Made by a program: the position numbers and the translations under genes. The notes under the pieces were generated by a model. It saw only the letters and a list, made by a program, of their open reading frames with translations. It ran no database searches and was not told the DNA's origin. From a virus (taxonomy: Duplodnaviria > Heunggongvirae > Uroviricota > Caudoviricetes), in IMG/VR virus record IMGVR_UViG_2563366964_000003: a DNA stretch of 16,306 nt. One strand, written 5' to 3'. Positions 1 to 8,201 of the stretch are shown in pieces. How positions within the stretch are numbered: position 1 is the stretch's first letter; each line of letters starts with the position of its first letter.

Positions 1-1284
1 TTACTTCTTCGCCTCTGCAACCACTTTACTACCCACGCCGCGGTTATTGTATTCCCACATGCGGTTGTAGTTAGTGTCATTCAGATTGCGCTGTATTTCG
101 TCGTTATCATCTACGCTGCCGGTATTACCCGCAAACGGACGATTAGAGATCACCGCATCGGCCCACGGTTTAGCCGTGTTAAAACCTTCGTTGATGGCGC
201 TATCACGGATCACCACCTGACCGTTGGTATTGGCATCAACATCCAGCGAGCGGCCCAGTTGCGCCACACCATCACCGAAAGCATTGAAACGGCTGTTTAC
301 GGCGAGGAAACCGTAGTAAATGTTGGACAGCGTAGCCGGTGCAAACACATACGCTTCTTGCTGAGTACGTGAGTTCACCACGCGGAATTCGGTGTTATCG
401 AACACCACTGCGCCGCGACCAGAAACGATATCCACATCCCCTTCAATGTAGCTGTTGGTCACCAGCGTACGCGGCTGACGATTTGTTTCCAGACGGTTCT
501 GCACACCGCTGTTGGTGACAAAGAAGGTGTTCTGACGACCGAGAATGTTAACGTTGTTAATCTGTACCTGGTCACCATCAGTACGCAGTGCCACCGCCGG
601 ATGGTTACCTGCATCTACGCTATCGCCCAGCGTGTTTTCGATGGTCAGATTTTGCAGTTGCAGGCCATTGTTTTGTGACCAGAAGACCGCAGAGCAGAGA
701 ACACCGATACTGTCGCTGCGTTTGCTCTGGCAGCTATCGTACATATACCACGCTGGTTTACCTGGCATATATTTGCCGCGCGGGTTGACGTCGTGACGCC
801 AGTCGGCAGGGCTCATGCCACCATCAAGGGAAAGCCCAATCTTCACATCAATCGGTTTTTCACCTGTACCGTACAGAGTAATTCCACCCGGAGCGGCAGG
901 GACATATACCGTTCCCTGATACTCACCAGGCATCACGGCAATATACTGGCGCTTGTTGGTACGCTTGATAATTGCCGCATCTACCGCCGCCTGAATCGTG
1001 GTATGCGTTACACCTTGAGTGCCCGCCGGGCCGACAACAAAGTCAGGTTGCGCAGGCAGGGTAATCGGGGAAGGATTCCACGCTGCAGCACCTGGTGTCA
1101 GGGATGCAAAATAGTGTTGAGCATCGAAATTCTGCGCTTCTTTTGCCGACAGAATCGGGCGAGAAGAGGTACCAGGCGCGGTTTGATCAGAAGGACGTTG
1201 ATCGGGCGGGGTTGAGCTACAGGCGGTCAGCGTCACGCCAAAAGCCAATGCCAGCGCCAGACGGGAAACTGAAAATGTGTTCAC
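1..1284 (-). CDS. ybhC: YbhC, pectinesterase-family outer-membrane lipoprotein (putative acyl-CoA thioesterase); complete 427 aa with lipobox LTAC
   Basis: Full-length ORF whose translation matches remembered E. coli YbhC; signal peptide plus lipobox; known neighbour of attλ. Confidence 0.9.
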   Translation of the reverse strand: MNTFSVSRLALALAFGVTLTACSSTPPDQRPSDQTAPGTSSRPILSAKEAQNFDAQHYFASLTPGAAAWNPSPITLPAQPDFVVGPAGTQGVTHTTIQAAVDAAIIKRTNKRQYIAVMPGEYQGTVYVPAAPGGITLYGTGEKPIDVKIGLSLDGGMSPADWRHDVNPRGKYMPGKPAWYMYDSCQSKRSDSIGVLCSAVFWSQNNGLQLQNLTIENTLGDSVDAGNHPAVALRTDGDQVQINNVNILGRQNTFFVTNSGVQNRLETNRQPRTLVTNSYIEGDVDIVSGRGAVVFDNTEFRVVNSRTQQEAYVFAPATLSNIYYGFLAVNSRFNAFGDGVAQLGRSLDVDANTNGQVVIRDSAINEGFNTAKPWADAVISNRPFAGNTGSVDDNDEIQRNLNDTNYNRMWEYNNRGVGSKVVAEAKK

Positions 1285-1330
1285 AGGTTGCTCCGGGCTA
1301 TGAAATAGAAAAATGAATCCGTTGAAGCCT

Positions 1331-1415
1331 GCTTTTTTATACTAAGTTGGCATTATAAAAAAGCATTGCTTATCAATTTGTTGCAACGAACAGGTCACTA
1401 TCAGTCAAAATAAAA
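1331..1415. other. attL: Prophage attL (B-O-P'): 15-bp λ att core GCTTTTTTATACTAA at 1331-1345, followed by P' arm with IHF H'-like site (tatcaatttgttg) and Int arm-type sites (aggtcactat, cagtcaaaat)
   Basis: Exact λ core sequence directly between host ybhC and phage int; P' arm motifs read directly from sequence. Confidence 0.85.
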
Positions 1416-1418
1416 TCA

Positions 1419-2489
1419 TTATTTGATTTCAATTTTGTCCCACTCCCTGCCTCTGTCATCACGATACTGTGATGCCATGGTGTCCGACTTATGCCCGAGA
1501 AGATGTTGAGCAAATTTATCGCTTATCTGCTTCTCATAGAGTCTTGCAGACAAACTGCGCAACTCGTGAAAGGTTGGCGGATCCCCTTCGAAGGAGAGAC
1601 CTGATGCTTTTCGTGCGCGCATAAAATACCTTGATACTGTGCCGGATGAAAGCGGTTCACGACGAGTAGATGCAATTATGGTTTCTCCGCCAAGAATCTT
1701 TTTGCATTTATCAAGTGTTTCCTTCATTGATATCCCGAGAGCATCAACATGCAATGTTGTTGGGATGGCAATTTTTACGCCTGTTTTGCTTTGCTCGACA
1801 TAAAGATATCCATCTACGATATCAGACCACTTCATTTCGCATAAATCACCAACTCGCTGCCCGGTAACAACAGCCAGTTCCATTGCAAGTCTAAGCCAAC
1901 ATGGTGATGATTCTGCTGCTTGATAAATTTTCAGGTATTCGTCAGCCGTAAGTCTTGATCTCCTTACCTCTGATTTTGCAGCGCGAGTGGCTGCGACCGG
2001 GTTTGTTGTTATATGGCCTTCAGCCATAGCCTCTCGGAATGCATCGCTCAGTGTTGATCTGATTAACTTGGCTGATGCCGCCTTTCCCTCGTCTATGTAT
2101 CCATTGAGCATTGCCGCAATTTCTTTTGTGGTGATGTCTTCAAGTGGAGCATCAGGCAGACCCCTCCTTATTGCTTTAATTTTGCTCATGTAATTTATGA
2201 GTGTCTTCTGCTTGATTCCTCTGCTGGCCAGGATTTTTTCGTAGCGATCAAGCCATGAATGTAACGTAACGGAATTATCACTGTTGATTCTCGCTGTCAG
2301 AGGCTTGTGTTTGTGTCCTGAAAATAACTCAATGTTGGCCTGTATAGCTTCAGTGATTGCGATTCGCCTGTCTCGGCCTAATCCAAACTCTTTACCCGTC
2401 CTTGGGTCCCTGTAGCAGTAATATCCATTGTTTCTTATATAAAGGTTAGGGGGTAAATCCCGGCGCTCATGACTTCGCCTTCTTCCCAT
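1419..2489 (-). CDS. int: Phage λ-type integrase (tyrosine recombinase), 356 aa
   Basis: Translation MGRRRSHERRDLPPNLYIRNNGYYCYRDPRTGKEF... matches λ Int from memory essentially throughout; adjacent to attL. Confidence 0.97.
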   Translation of the reverse strand: MGRRRSHERRDLPPNLYIRNNGYYCYRDPRTGKEFGLGRDRRIAITEAIQANIELFSGHKHKPLTARINSDNSVTLHSWLDRYEKILASRGIKQKTLINYMSKIKAIRRGLPDAPLEDITTKEIAAMLNGYIDEGKAASAKLIRSTLSDAFREAMAEGHITTNPVAATRAAKSEVRRSRLTADEYLKIYQAAESSPCWLRLAMELAVVTGQRVGDLCEMKWSDIVDGYLYVEQSKTGVKIAIPTTLHVDALGISMKETLDKCKKILGGETIIASTRREPLSSGTVSRYFMRARKASGLSFEGDPPTFHELRSLSARLYEKQISDKFAQHLLGHKSDTMASQYRDDRGREWDKIEIK

Positions 2490-2685
2490 TTCTGATCCTC
2501 TTCAAAAGGCTACCTGTTACTGGTCGATTTAAGTCAACCTTTACCGCTGATTCGTGGAACAGATATTCTCTTCCATCCTTAACCGGAGGAGGGAATATCC
2601 TGCATTCGCGCACCCATCGACGAACTGTTTCAAGGCTTCTTGGGCGTCGCTGGCGAGCGTTCCACTCCTGAAGTGTCAAGTACAT
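2467..2685 (-). CDS. xis: Excisionase Xis, 72 aa
   Basis: Translation MYLTLQEWNARQRRPRSLETVRRWVRECRIF... matches λ Xis; 23-bp overlap with int as in λ. Confidence 0.95.
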   Translation of the reverse strand: MYLTLQEWNARQRRPRSLETVRRWVRECRIFPPPVKDGREYLFHESAVKVDLNRPVTGSLLKRIRNGKKAKS

Positions 2686-2712
2686 CGCAAAGTCTCCGCA
2701 ATTACACGCAAG

Positions 2713-2733
2713 AAAAAACCGCCATCAGGCGGC
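2713..2733 (-). terminator. Putative intrinsic terminator on the minus strand (GC stem ccgcc/ggcgg, loop, then U6 tract), overlapping the stop of the 55-aa ORF
   Basis: Minus-strand RNA reads gccgccugauggcgg followed by uuuuuucu. Confidence 0.4.
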
Positions 2734-2892
2734 TTGGTGTTCTTTCAGTTCTTCAATTCGAATATTGGTTATGTCTGCATGTGCTATCTGCGCCCATATC
2801 ATCCAGTGGTCATAGCAGTCATTGATGTTCTCTGCTTCGATAACTCTGTTGAATGGTTCTCCATTCCATTCACCTGTGACTCGGAAGTGCAT
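2725..2892 (-). CDS. Small hypothetical protein, 55 aa (MHFRVTGEWNGEPFNRVIEAENINDCYDHWMIWAQIAHADITNIRIEELKEHQAA), in the position of a λ orf55-like gene upstream of xis
   Basis: ATG preceded by GGAG Shine-Dalgarno at about 8 nt; not in the ORF track because under 60 aa; stop codon lies in a terminator-like hairpin. Confidence 0.5.
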   Translation of the reverse strand: MHFRVTGEWNGEPFNRVIEAENINDCYDHWMIWAQIAHADITNIRIEELKEHQAA

Positions 2893-2968
2893 TTATCATC
2901 TCCATAAAACAAAACTCGCCGTAGCGAGTTCAGATATAATTTCCACCAAAGGCAGTAGTTGCTGATGC

Positions 2969-2976
2969 TAAGAATT
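2969..2976. repeat. Left copy of the 8-bp target-site duplication TAAGAATT flanking IS1
   Basis: Identical 8-mer immediately outside both IS1 ends. Confidence 0.75.
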
Positions 2977-3031
2977 GGTGATGCTGCCAACTTACTGATT
3001 TAGTGTATGATGGTGTTTTTGAGGTGCTCCA

Positions 3032-3307
3032 GTGGCTTCTGTTTCTATCAGCTGTCCCTCCTGTTCAGCTACTGACGGGGTGGTGCGTAACGGCAAAAGC
3101 ACTGCCGGACATCAGCGCTATCTCTGCTCTCACTGCCGTAAAACATGGCAACTGCAGTTCACTTACACCGCTTCTCAACCCGGTACGCACCAGAAAATCA
3201 TTGATATGGCCATGAATGGCGTTGGATGCCGGGCAACCGCCCGCATTATGGGCGTTGGCCTCAACACGATTTTCCGCCATTTAAAAAACTCAGGCCGCAG
3301 TCGGTAA
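3032..3307 (+). CDS. insA: IS1 InsA (transposition repressor / N-terminal part of the InsAB' transposase), 91 aa
   Basis: Translation [43 protein letters not shown]... is canonical InsA. Confidence 0.92.
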
Positions 3308-3729
3308 CCTCGCGCATACAGCCGGGCAGTGACGTCATCGTCTGCGCGGAAATGGACGAACAGTGGGGATACGTCGGGGCTAAATCGCGCCAGCGCTGGC
3401 TGTTTTACGCGTATGACAGGCTCCGGAAGACGGTTGTTGCGCACGTATTCGGTGAACGCACTATGGCGACGCTGGGGCGTCTTATGAGCCTGCTGTCACC
3501 CTTTGACGTGGTGATATGGATGACGGATGGCTGGCCGCTGTATGAATCCCGCCTGAAGGGAAAGCTGCACGTAATCAGCAAGCGATATACGCAGCGAATT
3601 GAGCGGCATAACCTGAATCTGAGGCAGCACCTGGCACGGCTGGGACGGAAGTCGCTGTCGTTCTCAAAATCGGTGGAGCTGCATGACAAAGTCATCGGGC
3701 ATTATCTGAACATAAAACACTATCAATAA
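3226..3729 (+). CDS. insB: IS1 insB reading frame (expressed as the InsAB' transposase by -1 frameshift at the A6C motif, about 3285-3291)
   Basis: Translation ...[50 protein letters not shown]... is canonical InsB; slippery aaaaaac present in the insA/insB overlap. Confidence 0.88.
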
Positions 3730-3744
3730 GTTGGAGTCATTACC

Positions 3745-3752
3745 TAAGAATT
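3745..3752. repeat. Right copy of the 8-bp target-site duplication TAAGAATT flanking IS1
   Basis: Identical to 2969-2976; overlaps the stop codon of the 142-aa gene. Confidence 0.75.
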
Positions 3753-4179
3753 ATTCAATATCTATTCCTGTAATATCTTTTATCTTTTTCCTTGCAAAGC
3801 CTTTTGCTAGTGATTTTGAAACACTTATTAGTGTACTAATTCCCTCATCCTTAAAGTTTGTTTTTATAGTTTGCCAGACCTCCTTTTGACGCAAGTCAGC
3901 AATAAAATCATGCCCTCTTGCTGTCAACCTCAGTGGTACTTCGATCCAACTATATCCAACACCTTCCCCTAACTCGTTGGACATTATATGACCGAACCCA
4001 GGTTTTCCATCAACCCTGACTATTAATTCGTAGTCGCATAATAATCGCATATGGAAAATAAAATTTTGGTCATATCTATTAAAGCCATTATCCTCTAGTT
4101 CACTAAGCATCGTGTCAGGGCCATGAGTTTTTTCGAATGCGATAAGTAGATCTTTTAGATATTGCTGGTCTAATTTCAT
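3751..4179 (-). CDS. Hypothetical prophage accessory protein, 142 aa, no family recognised with certainty (possibly a DUF2513-like winged-helix phage protein)
   Basis: Clean ORF with strong GGAGG Shine-Dalgarno 6-7 nt upstream of ATG; lies in an AT-rich accessory segment of the leftward operon. Confidence 0.65.
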   Translation of the reverse strand: MKLDQQYLKDLLIAFEKTHGPDTMLSELEDNGFNRYDQNFIFHMRLLCDYELIVRVDGKPGFGHIMSNELGEGVGYSWIEVPLRLTARGHDFIADLRQKEVWQTIKTNFKDEGISTLISVSKSLAKGFARKKIKDITGIDIE

Positions 4180-4207
4180 TGCCGCCTCCGTGACATGTCA
4201 CAGAGAT

Positions 4208-4546
4208 TTATATCATTAATTTTGTTTCGTGCCAGCCTTTGGTCACCCAGCATTGTGAGTCACCATTACACGGGCATGAATTAACAGGAACTCTCTCGCC
4301 GCACTTACCGCAACGTTTTCTGCTGATCGATTTTATACGCCAGCGCACACGTGCATCATCCTGGCGGCTCAGTAACGCGATGTACTCACCAAACTCGTAA
4401 GGCGCATGCCTGAAGCGGCGCGTGGCTCAGTTACGATCCAGCATTTCAATTTCCTGAGCATCAAGTACAAGCTCCAGCTTACGCATACCGGATGATGCTT
4501 GCTTGGCTCTCTGATCGACTTTGCGCTCTGCTGATGATTTAGCCAT
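4208..4546 (-). pseudogene. Opal-interrupted small ORF: 39 codons (MAKSSAERKVDQRAKQASSGMRKLELVLDAQEIEMLDRN), in-frame TGA at 4427-4429, then 72 further in-frame codons ending in a CxxC...CxC zinc-ribbon-like tail; possibly ea8.5-like
   Basis: AGGAAA Shine-Dalgarno before the ATG; open reading continues in the same frame after the TGA to TAA at 4208-4210. Confidence 0.45.
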
Positions 4547-4740
4547 TCTGCTTTTCCTGCATTAGGAGAAAGACAATCATGGCGGCGCGGATACTTCCGG
4601 TATCTTTTTACTCGATATTACCCTTCAATGGCACATACAAGAAGAGAGCCATCAACAGGAGTGAGTGAGGAATCGACAACCAGCAACGCTTAATTATCTA
4701 TAGTGTCGTATTTGCTTCATAAAATATGGCGAATAACACA

Positions 4741-4778
4741 AAGCCCGCAGCAGCTCATTGTGCGGGCTTTTCTTATAC
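4741..4778. terminator. Intrinsic terminator hairpin (aagcccgca ... tgcgggctt) with T-rich tails on both strands; likely terminates the 4840-5454 gene
   Basis: 9-bp perfect stem followed by ttttcttat on plus and by a U-rich run on minus; about 65 nt downstream of the minus-strand stop at 4840. Confidence 0.5.
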
Positions 4779-4839
4779 ATACTTCCTAGAGATAATTCTA
4801 TGGAGGCATTAAATTAATACTGTCATTGGTAATATCATA

Positions 4840-5454
4840 TTATCTAAAAGTCTTTCCACTTTTAACGTCTAGGTATATTCTGTTCGACAACGTCATTCCT
4901 CCGCAATATGTGAAATAGATGTTTTTCCCCTTATTGCTTGATGCCATCCACCCTCCGATTTCCTTAAAGTCGCTTTCCGTGCAGACCCCTTCGTTTATTA
5001 ACTTCCTAGCTGCCGAAGAAAACTCTTTTTTGTATATACGGTAGTCATCAGATCCTTTGATTAAAGTATCATCTCCGCTCGCATTTTCAGCAGGATCTGA
5101 TGGCCTTTCACTGCTAAGATCACTAAGTTTAACCCATTCTGAAAACTTGCCATTGACGATTCCGTTTTTTCTTGTGCAGGATTTATTACCTTCTTTAATA
5201 TATTCGCTTTCCCCTCCCACACATGAGGCTGAATATGGCTCAGTTATACGAACCCATTCACCTTTTTTTTCTAGAAAATCTACGCCTTCCCTGAAAAATA
5301 GTTTCCCAGCCACTCCACATTTACTTGAAGGGCAGGTATGTCTTTCCGTTCGATCAACAACAACCCAAAGTCTTGATTCATTTTTTGCCATTGCCGATGG
5401 TATTTGAGATGAGACAATTAACGTAAGCCCTAAAATTAGTATTGATTTTTTCAT
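4840..5454 (-). CDS. Secreted or periplasmic hypothetical protein, 204 aa, with signal peptide (MKKSILILGLTLIVSSQIPSAMA) and six cysteines
   Basis: Sec-type signal peptide with AMA-K cleavage motif; AAGGAA Shine-Dalgarno; own terminator; AT-rich codon usage unlike flanking λ genes. Confidence 0.7.
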   Translation of the reverse strand: MKKSILILGLTLIVSSQIPSAMAKNESRLWVVVDRTERHTCPSSKCGVAGKLFFREGVDFLEKKGEWVRITEPYSASCVGGESEYIKEGNKSCTRKNGIVNGKFSEWVKLSDLSSERPSDPAENASGDDTLIKGSDDYRIYKKEFSSAARKLINEGVCTESDFKEIGGWMASSNKGKNIYFTYCGGMTLSNRIYLDVKSGKTFR

Positions 5455-5752
5455 TGTAATTTCCTTTTACTTTTTACAAAGCGTTTAATCATGGCTGATT
5501 ATCTTTAAGCGTAGTAACAGCCTTGTGCGAAACATGTTACCAAATCGCCATTTCAGTGTATCCGCAGTTAGGCTGCCACTTCAAGGATTCCTAATTACAT
5601 GGTACGTAAGCGTAAAATCCCGTTGGTTGTCGGGTAATAACTCTGATCAAATCTCCCTTGTCTTTTGCTCTTACGTATGCAGCTCTTGTGTATTCAACCC
5701 AGGCCTCCAGTTCAGCAATACGCTTACTTCCATCCGAGATAACACCTTCTAC

Positions 5753-6004
5753 TCACGCTGCTCGTTGAGTTTTGATTTTTGCTGTCTCCAGCTCAACACG
5801 CAGTTTCCTCACCGTTAGCGCAATATCCTCGTTCTCCTGGTCGCGGCGTTTGATGTACTGCTGGTTTCTTTCCCGTTCATCCAGCAGTGTCAGCACAATC
5901 GATGGTGTTACCAGCTCATGGAAAAGGTCCGCGTCAAATCCCCAGTTGTCATGCATTGCCTGCTCTGCCGCTTCACGCAGTGCCTGAGAGTGAATTACGC
6001 TCAC
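5753..6004 (-). CDS. Hypothetical early-left protein, 83 aa as written, in the position of λ ea22; frame stays open for 50 more codons after the TGA stop (to 5592), so this may be an opal-truncated longer gene
   Basis: GTG start overlapping the upstream stop (GTGA coupling); coiled-coil-like C-terminus; in-frame continuation read by hand. Confidence 0.55.
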   Translation of the reverse strand: MSVIHSQALREAAEQAMHDNWGFDADLFHELVTPSIVLTLLDERERNQQYIKRRDQENEDIALTVRKLRVELETAKIKTQRAA

Positions 6005-6222
6005 TTCGAACCTCTCTGTTTACTGATAAGTTCCAGATCCTCCTGGCAACTTGCACAAGTCCGACAACCCTGAACGGCCAGGCGTCTTCGTTCATCTATC
6101 GGATCGCCACACTCACAACAATGAGTGGCAGATATAGCCTGGTGGTTCAGGCGGCGCATTTTTATTGCTGTGTTGCGCTGTAATTCTTCAATTTCTGATG
6201 CTGAATCAATGATGTCTGCCAT
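6001..6222 (-). CDS. DksA/TraR-family C4 zinc-finger protein, 73 aa (λ Orf73-like)
   Basis: CxxC ... CxxC spacing (CCECGDPI ... CRTCASC) and size typical of TraR; location in the leftward early operon. Confidence 0.8.
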   Translation of the reverse strand: MADIIDSASEIEELQRNTAIKMRRLNHQAISATHCCECGDPIDERRRLAVQGCRTCASCQEDLELISKQRGSK

Positions 6223-6320
6223 CTTTCATTAATCCCTGAATTGTTGGTTAATACGCTTGAGGGTGAATGCGAATAATAAAAAAGGAGCCTGTAGCTCCCT
6301 GATGATTTTGCTTTTCATGT

Positions 6321-6602
6321 TCACCGTTCCTTAAAAACGCCGTTTAACATGCCGATTGCTAGACTTAAATGAGTCGGTGTGAATCCCATCAGCGTTACCG
6401 TTTCGCGGTGCTTCTTCAGTACGCTACGGCAAATGTCATCGACGTTTTTATCCGGAAACTGCTGTCTGGCTTTTTTGATTTCAGAATTAGCCTGACGGGC
6501 AATGCTGCGAAGGGCGTTTTCCTGCTGAGGTGTCACTGAACAAGCCCCATGTCGGCAAGCATAAGCACACAGAATATGAAGCCCGCTGCCAGAAAAATGC
6601 AT
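6321..6602 (-). CDS. Hypothetical small early-left protein (93 aa from the first ATG; true start may be internal)
   Basis: ORF in the same orientation and operon as exo and the TraR-like gene; no recognisable domain; weak Shine-Dalgarno at the first ATG. Confidence 0.4.
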   Translation of the reverse strand: MHFSGSGLHILCAYACRHGACSVTPQQENALRSIARQANSEIKKARQQFPDKNVDDICRSVLKKHRETVTLMGFTPTHLSLAIGMLNGVFKER

Positions 6603-7636: not shown

Positions 7637-8079
7637 GCTGCCACCTTCTGCTCAGTGGCTTTCTGTTTCAGGAATCCAAGAGCTTTCACTGCTTCGGCCT
7701 GTGTCAGTTCTGACGATGCGCGAATGTCGCGGCGAAATATCTGGGAACAGAGCGGCAATAAGTCGTCATCCCATGTTTTGTCCAGGGCAATCAGCAGAGT
7801 GTTAATCTCCTGCATGGTTTCATCGTTAACCGGAGTAATGTCGCGTTCCGGCTGACGTTCTGCGGTGTATGCGGTATTTTCGACAATGCGCTCGGCTTCA
7901 TCCTTGTCATAGATACCAGCAAATCCGAAGGCCAGACGGGCACACTGAATCATGGCTTTATGCCGTAACATCCGTTTGGGATGCGACTGCCACGGCCCCG
8001 TAATTTCTCTGCCTTCGCGGGTTTTGAATGGTTCGCGGCGGCATTCATCCATCCACTCGGTAACGCAGATCGGATGATT
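7633..8079 (-). pseudogene. bet: bet (Redβ) 3' fragment: C-terminal part only (...NHPICVTEWMDECRREPFKTREGREITGPW...KVAA); N-terminal third missing
   Basis: C-terminal translation matches λ Bet; upstream of codon N (8079-8077) the frame hits TAG and homology to Bet is lost. Confidence 0.9.
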
Positions 8080-8201
8080 ACCGGTTCGCTACCAGGGAAG
8101 AACGGGAAGGAAAGGTGAGCACGAATCTGATTTTCAAGGAGTGTCGCCAGAGTGCCGCGATGAAGCGGGTGTTGGCATTTTATCGCGGCAATTTTCAATA
8201 G
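8079..8201 (+). pseudogene. ren: ren 3' remnant (encodes ...YRFATREEREGKVSTNLIFKECRQSAAMKRVLAFYRGNFQ), fused directly to the bet truncation point
   Basis: Plus-strand frame matches my recollection of the λ Ren C-terminus (YRFATREEREGKMSTNLVFKECRQSAAMKRVLA...); recall-based. Confidence 0.6.

Follow-up and report, generated by a model that had tools for sequence, protein, structure and literature searches.

A DUF2513 gene in a defective lambda-like prophage: family, predicted fold, operon position and relatives fused to defence-type effectors

The window, by which we mean the whole 16,306-nucleotide stretch of viral DNA analysed here, carries an intact gene of a known and already annotated family, DUF2513/PHROG 585. 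We describe the gene, its family, its predicted winged-helix fold, its operon position and the fusions found among its relatives. The gene is ordinary in location, belongs to a known family and is modestly interesting. The modest new element is the link of the domain to defence-type effectors, which is the only functional clue for DUF2513. We tentatively propose (probability roughly 40%) that the phage copy works in phage–host or phage–phage conflict, as a decoy or as an exclusion sensor, and we infer both this role and its direction. The stand-alone protein would be a winged-helix recognition module that lacks an effector. The features to which we refer are collected in Table 1, including the neighbouring gene p112.

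Table 1. Coordinates of the DUF2513 gene and of the elements around it in the window
Feature	Position	Strand	Basis or remark
Host ybhC	1-1284		adjoins int
int	1419-2489	-	prophage gene
xis	2467-2685	-	prophage gene
55-aa ORF (PHROG 676, unknown)	2725..2892	-	between the DUF2513 gene and xis
Intrinsic-terminator-like hairpin GAACTCGC-TACG-GCGAGTT plus T-run	2912..2931	-
IS1 target duplication, TAAGAATT, 8-9 bp	2969-2976 and 3745-3752		on both sides of IS1
IS1, 768 bp	2977-3744	+	sequence; both terminal inverted repeats
DUF2513/PHROG 585 gene, 142 aa, intact	3751..4179	-	ORF, Pfam, PHROG, homologues, AF2 model, pN/pS
Ribosome-binding site GGAGG	4185-4189	-	read from sequence; 5 nt 5′ of the ATG
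Perfect 12-bp palindrome GTGACATGTCAC	4190-4201		after the p112 stop, before the DUF2513 RBS
p112 pseudogene (112 aa, PHROG 536 “transcriptional regulator”)	4208..4546	-	in-frame TGA at 4427-4429
Deletion joint, truncated RecT/truncated ren	8077..8085		comparison with Chlobot

The gene, its family and its predicted fold

The ORF comprises 142 codons from an ATG start to a TAA stop (3751-3753). The first-pass annotation, made from the letters of the DNA, had recognised a well-formed gene of this length with a strong ribosome-binding site and had noted a resemblance to DUF2513; both observations hold. All 113 of the 113 homologues compared (46-99% identity) begin with MK(I/L)(D/N)Q and are of the same length, and those with names are all from Enterobacterales. 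Between genera, pN is 0.14-0.25 against a pS of 0.75-0.90, at which synonymous sites are saturated; on sequence comparison, the homologues are under purifying selection. An identical protein is present in RefSeq (WP_000762730.1), annotated as “DUF2513 domain-containing protein.” Given the conserved start, the low pN relative to pS and the RefSeq annotation, the ORF is more than a chance reading frame. The gene was found in 183 of 5,426 complete E. coli genomes, in 167 of them with at least 80% of the query covered.

The protein is a typical member of its family. Pfam PF10711 (DUF2513) matches residues 2-115 over the full profile (positions 1-100 of 100) with 42.9 bits, above the gathering cut-off of 29.6 (E 6.8e-11), and the same domain is carried by all 113 close homologues. 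PHROG 585, which is in the category “unknown function,” matches residues 1-135 on profile positions 1-127 of 128 (E 2.3e-34); Pfam likewise attaches no function to the family. When 1.84 billion representatives of clusters at 50% identity were searched with a profile, 1,543 DUF2513 relatives appeared at E<=1e-3. The alignment is marked by two motifs, FxFHMRLLxD and PLRLTxxGHDF, and its invariant residues are F42, H43, L47, D49, R84, L85, T86, G89, H90, F92 and W102, among which H43, D49, R84, T86 and H90 are polar.

An AlphaFold model of the protein (pLDDT 90.8, pTM 0.81) predicts a winged helix-turn-helix with helices at residues 5-16, 25-30 and 38-49 and a long four-stranded hairpin wing at 53-85, followed by three C-terminal helices (87-97, 99-108 and 114-137). 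Over residues 1-112 the net charge is -6, which makes the winged-helix part acidic; the last helix is basic. This acidity is a property of the family, as the first 100 residues have a net charge of -1 to -13 in 29 of 29 aligned homologues. The nominal recognition helix, F-x-F-H-M-R-L-L-x-D, is mostly hydrophobic. We infer that the protein binds by way of this fold and that it is probably dimeric.

The first-pass annotation had suggested PADLOC-type and Foldseek searches. PADLOC-DB v2 gave 0 families at E<=1, with no effector domain, and Foldseek found no significant match to the model in the PDB (best E 0.075). NCBIfam had no match either, nor did PDB sequences at E<=10, and a structure search of BFVD with the model returned only uncharacterised phage proteins. 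Literature searches with DUF2513/PF10711, phrog_585, the RefSeq accession, YjcQ and the PDC-S names yielded nothing useful. The nearest named families are other winged-helix proteins. Several DUF2513 relatives cross-match PF09639 (YjcQ), a prophage-associated winged-helix family of Bacillus with proteins of similar size, at E values down to 5e-6, but the 142-aa protein itself has no match to it at E<=1, and YjcQ is likewise uncharacterised. Judged from the model, the generic winged-helix core is shared with MarR, PadR, HxlR and TubR proteins, whereas identity to them is only 8-21%, there is no HMM membership, the C-terminal three-helix part has no counterpart among them and the DUF2513 domain is acidic.

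These comparisons bear on the reading that the protein is an ordinary MarR/PadR-like dimeric transcription factor, which would bind an operator and tune phage or host genes in early lytic growth. We regard this as somewhat unlikely. Most small phage winged-helix proteins are DNA binders, which counts in its favour, and the best fold match is indeed to DNA-binding winged-helix regulators. The C-terminal helices of the model might serve for PadR-like dimerisation, and phosphates might be contacted by the conserved His, Arg and Thr residues that lie in helix 3 and in the strand of the wing. However, no MarR, PadR or HxlR profile of Pfam or NCBIfam matches the protein at E<=1, and an acidic winged helix with a hydrophobic “recognition” helix would be unusual for a plain operator-binding repressor. 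Nor did we find a cognate conserved operator: the sole conserved palindrome nearby, GTGACATGTCAC, tracks p112 and occurs in two to three copies in epsilon15 and phiV10, two phages that lack DUF2513, and the DUF2513 gene shifts between operons without a fixed target gene.

Phage neighbourhoods and the state of this prophage

The window begins with host ybhC, followed by int, xis, the 55-aa ORF, IS1, the DUF2513 gene and further lambdoid early-left genes. Integration is thus beside ybhC, which we take to be the classical lambda attachment region. The first-pass annotation had assigned the gene to a variable xis-adjacent slot of a lambdoid prophage and had seen IS1 at its 3′ end with the gene undamaged. 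The gene order agrees with this and IS1 lies 6 nt past the stop codon. The minus strand, the defective prophage with its lost promoter, the pseudogene partner p112 and the separation of the gene from its terminator by IS1 are added here.

The right copy of the IS1 target duplication shares two bases with the TAA stop, so that the DUF2513 coding sequence is untouched. IS1-free alleles with 100% identical flanks exist and confirm the insertion junction. In these alleles the terminator-like hairpin is about 45 nt past the DUF2513 stop, and in the window it is parted from the gene by IS1. Of the two properties expected of a moron, an autonomous promoter-gene-terminator unit, a terminator-like hairpin of its own is found in the IS1-free arrangement, and a promoter of its own is not, as no sigma-70-like site is present on the minus strand between 2600 and 5700. 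The gap to the upstream ORF is only 28 nt. Rfam found no RNA family anywhere in the window. The window is a piece of E. coli chromosome, and its positions 1-6394 are 100% identical to strain NCTC9040; a second IS1 copy that interrupts a ZapA-like gene in that strain (L001 12596-13363) is absent from the window at 6385-6394, which therefore derives from a close relative of NCTC9040.

A copy with 94% identity is present in Chlobot, a viable lambda-like phage. The Chlobot genes N, ral, kil, gam, bet, exo and, further on, the DksA-like gene, the 204-aa ORF, p112, DUF2513, the 55-aa ORF, xis and int follow one another on one strand. This gene order places the DUF2513 gene of Chlobot in the N-dependent pL operon, just before xis-int. 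Accessory genes of the lambda “ea”/b-region, between exo and xis, have the same pL-operon position and orientation and likewise vary in content between related phages, but this likeness is positional only. The 204-aa ORF (PHROG 8310, unknown; 4840-5454, minus strand) is conserved in Chlobot; it has an N-terminal signal/lipoprotein-like sequence and a weak SH3_3 match, and we read it as a secreted accessory protein of the same variable region.

We compared homologue neighbourhoods, as had also been suggested, by assigning 70 distinct DUF2513 sequences with flanks to slots. The xis/int arm and the position directly upstream of the small terminase gene hold 13 of the 70 each, the nin-like region before DUF1367 holds 10, and one is in the early-left arm in Serratia, ahead of an Rv2179c-like exonuclease and integrase. 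The remaining 33 are at other positions or at contig ends. Temperate enterobacterial phages therefore carry the gene in no fewer than three distinct slots, and in every annotated neighbourhood view it is co-directional with the flanking phage genes. In intact phages it would be an accessory gene transcribed with lytic or early operons. An all-against-all comparison of neighbours at 25 loci found no universal partner, and distant homologues outside the enterobacteria lie among unrelated, housekeeping or uncharacterised genes. In the clade at 49-52% identity, another conserved non-coding element, ATTACAGCAGGCATTCACTGAGTGCCTGTGATAATGCTAAATTA, is located about 70 nt upstream of DUF2513. It includes an inverted repeat with an extended -10-like TGTGATAAT behind it and is found in phages with DUF2513 before terS (L003 ~4930-5000, L010, L013, L111 and L114).

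The lambda-like prophage in the window is, from its gene content, defective. Relative to Chlobot it lacks about 6.8 kb with gam, kil, ral, sieB, N, cI, cro, cII and O, and the joint is common to only 19 complete E. coli genomes. With the N, cI, cro and O region gone, pL and pR are lost too, and the promoter that drives the DUF2513 gene in intact phages is gone with pL. Because this native promoter is deleted and the upstream partner p112 is broken, expression of the gene in the window is probably poor or absent.

These losses raise the possibility that the window copy rides along silently in a decaying prophage and is useless to the cell, a reading that is orthogonal to the others and that we think unlikely. 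It would fit the deletion of pL, N and the immunity region, the rarity of the joint, the nonsense codon in p112, the IS1 that cuts the gene off from its terminator and the want of a sigma-70-like promoter upstream on the minus strand. Against this, the ORF carries no lesion and has the same sequence in several strains, and in two of three comparisons within E. coli the allele differences are mostly synonymous (dN/dS 0.17 and 0.25, with 0.68 against Chlobot; few substitutions in each). Transcription from weak promoters, internal or derived from IS1, is also possible.

The upstream gene p112 and a conserved palindrome

The product of p112 has an RHH-like N-terminal pattern and a cysteine cluster with invariant Cys79, 82, 91, 93 and 99. 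Searches of Pfam, PADLOC and the PDB gave no match for it, and its predicted structure, with a pLDDT of 50, is too poor to be informative. In the window, the in-frame TGA stands in place of the invariant Cys40. Recoding of this codon as selenocysteine was considered and rejected, as there is no downstream hairpin (z +0.6) and no Rfam SECIS match. Of 20 distinct E. coli allele pairs, 12 have a disrupted p112, with at least four lesion patterns between them, and all 20 have an intact DUF2513.

The two genes are adjacent, with a rigid spacer of 25-28 nt, in E. coli, Cronobacter, Yersinia and other loci, and in different phage slots. Identity (p112/DUF2513) is 62%/64% in Cronobacter and 47%/65% in Yersinia. 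Either gene can occur without the other. p112, with the palindrome, is often found without DUF2513 and is then followed by terS, UmuD-like, NinB-like or small ORFs. In DUF2513 clades at 73-76% identity to the window protein, no more than the final few codons of p112 are left, and those at 49-52% have no p112 upstream. A type II toxin-antitoxin pair is ruled out for p112 and DUF2513, as their co-occurrence is not obligate and p112 is broken in 12 of 20 pairs.

Some annotations around p112 deserve mention. In Chlobot, an ORF annotated as “UmuD-like protein” (L002 5494-5811) overlaps p112 in a different frame. In other phages an ORF of 109-113 aa that starts MGFPSPA.DY, which we read as UmuD-like, directly follows p112 and the palindrome. 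In the window, 4621-4686 (minus strand) corresponds to a fragment of a RefSeq “DNA repair protein.”

The palindrome GTGACATGTCAC is located 11 nt upstream of the DUF2513 ATG. It is conserved to the base across lineages whose proteins are only 47-65% identical and whose intergenic flanks vary. Among the IMG/VR matches listed, at least 39 copies are flanked by both p112 and DUF2513, at least 37 by p112 only, at least two by DUF2513 only and at least 67 by neither. Some copies of the last class are probably chance occurrences or arrays of GTGACA half-sites. No paper containing the 12-mer was found.

Epsilon15, in which p112 is gp49 and DUF2513 is missing, has three copies of GTGACATGTCAC, where 0.0024 are expected (L246; positions 2142, 19517 and 39612). 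One is located after terL, one over the gp18 stop and one over the gp49 stop, the latter two each just before an annotated terminator. Similarly, phiV10 (L248), also without DUF2513, has two copies, at 2262 and 19493, each between a stop codon and a terminator. The order of stop codon, palindrome and terminator recurs in 21 of 110 distinct IMG/VR contexts. In the window, the DUF2513 gene lies between the palindrome and the terminator.

The co-occurrence with p112 and the terminator-proximal copies in epsilon15 and phiV10 suggest that GTGACATGTCAC belongs with p112 and with operon ends, and not with DUF2513. It may be a p112 binding site or a terminator-linked control element. That it is an operator of DUF2513 itself is improbable, since the palindrome tracks p112 and is present in both phages without DUF2513. 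It is also distinct from the annotated operator of the epsilon15 repressor, which is ATTACC-N5-GGTAAT.

We consider it very unlikely that DUF2513 and p112 form a two-gene cassette, translationally coupled by a palindrome/RBS hairpin and acting as a regulator or a toxin-antitoxin-like pair: the adjacency with its rigid spacer in several genera and slots fits such a unit, as does an RNA hairpin predicted in E. coli (CUCUGUGA-CAUG-UCACGGAG) that pairs the GGAG of the RBS just past the p112 stop, but the hairpin lacks statistical significance (z -1.2), its extension shows no conservation, p112 with the palindrome is about as frequent without DUF2513, whole clades have DUF2513 with little or nothing of p112, and p112 has repeatedly become a pseudogene beside an intact DUF2513.

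Relatives fused to effectors and a possible role in conflict

Among the best 150 of the 1,543 family representatives, 10 (about 7%) are longer than 190 aa. Six of these 10 have a recognisable effector part behind a complete DUF2513 module, in which the winged helix and C-terminal helices make up the N-terminal part. In detail, P0138 carries a CAP12/Pycsar-type TIR domain, P0241 a TIR_2/ThsB-like domain (PDC-S66) and P0210 a PDC-S60/DUF4062-like (NIR-like) domain, and P0217, P0127 and P0202 have AbiTi-like C-termini. DUF4062 is reported to be a defence NADase and has been renamed NIR (bioRxiv 10.64898/2026.09.04.749371). All of these fusions come from environmental metagenomes without taxonomy. 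Their contexts are a two-gene islet, with a 221-aa integrase directly before it, for the TIR fusion gene, an island with a stand-alone DUF2513 gene 2.6 kb away and an HTH/ImmA pair for the NIR-like fusion, and a position beside a RES toxin and a P4 cII-like gene for the AbiTi-like fusion.

Some single-protein candidate defence effectors with an N-terminal sensor (PDC-S35, PDC-S66, PDC-S60, ThsB-like/Pycsar TIR and AbiTi) consist of a DUF2513 module and such an effector. Unlike them, the window protein is devoid of an effector domain and gives no PADLOC match, and the PADLOC models for TIR, PDC-S and AbiTi match the fused relatives only through their C-terminal effector halves.

A related arrangement was noted in prophages of the Serratia type, where a 305-aa gene (PHROG 3634) is located just upstream of DUF2513 (L038 5064-5981, at a distance of 19 nt; L110 3097-3678). 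Its product has a weak match to a PADLOC TIR effector (E 1e-4), and neither Pfam, nor BLASTP against the fusions, nor the PDB supports a TIR-like nature. By analogy with the DUF2513-TIR fusions, which they would mirror, the two genes may be a two-gene prophage defence unit.

The first-pass annotation had noted that genes in this slot often serve host interaction or anti-defence; the protein has no PADLOC match, but its domain is fused to defence-type effectors elsewhere. With no catalytic domain, the DUF2513 protein would have to work through binding, whether to a nucleic acid, a nucleotide-like ligand or a protein. In the proposed conflict role it might compete with the sensors of DUF2513-effector proteins for their cue or partner, and so serve immune evasion, or it might be the sensing half of an exclusion function. 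This proposal rests on the effector fusions, on the presence of the gene in lytic operons at several slots, on a “recognition” surface that is acidic and hydrophobic, and on the retention of the gene while p112 decays.

Several points weigh against it. The fusions are a small minority and come from metagenomes without taxonomy, so that a decoy target in Enterobacterales would be hypothetical. The protein has no relative in PADLOC or NCBIfam or among solved structures. The TIR-like call for the Serratia neighbour rests on one weak match. Moreover, the invariant residues His43, Arg45, Arg84 and Thr86 would suit a winged helix that binds DNA in the ordinary way just as well.

A more specific version of the conflict role would make DUF2513 an early decoy copy of a TIR, NIR or AbiT sensor and would separately make p112 and GTGACATGTCAC a terminator-adjacent regulatory device; we think this combination improbable. 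In it, early DUF2513 protein would soak up the activating cue or poison the sensor oligomers and would represent a new class of decoy for immune evasion. The device, hitherto undescribed, would operate at operon ends of epsilon15-like phages, and DUF2513 would have been inserted between the palindrome and its terminator.

If the protein is a plain regulator, the finding is routine. The link to effectors offers a concrete and cheap hypothesis for a family of about 1,500 cluster representatives at 50% identity, and the gene is open to experiments both in Chlobot, which is viable, and in natural E. coli lysogens. If phage DUF2513 proteins do act as decoys or exclusion sensors, they would be a new module in the arms race between phages and bacteria.
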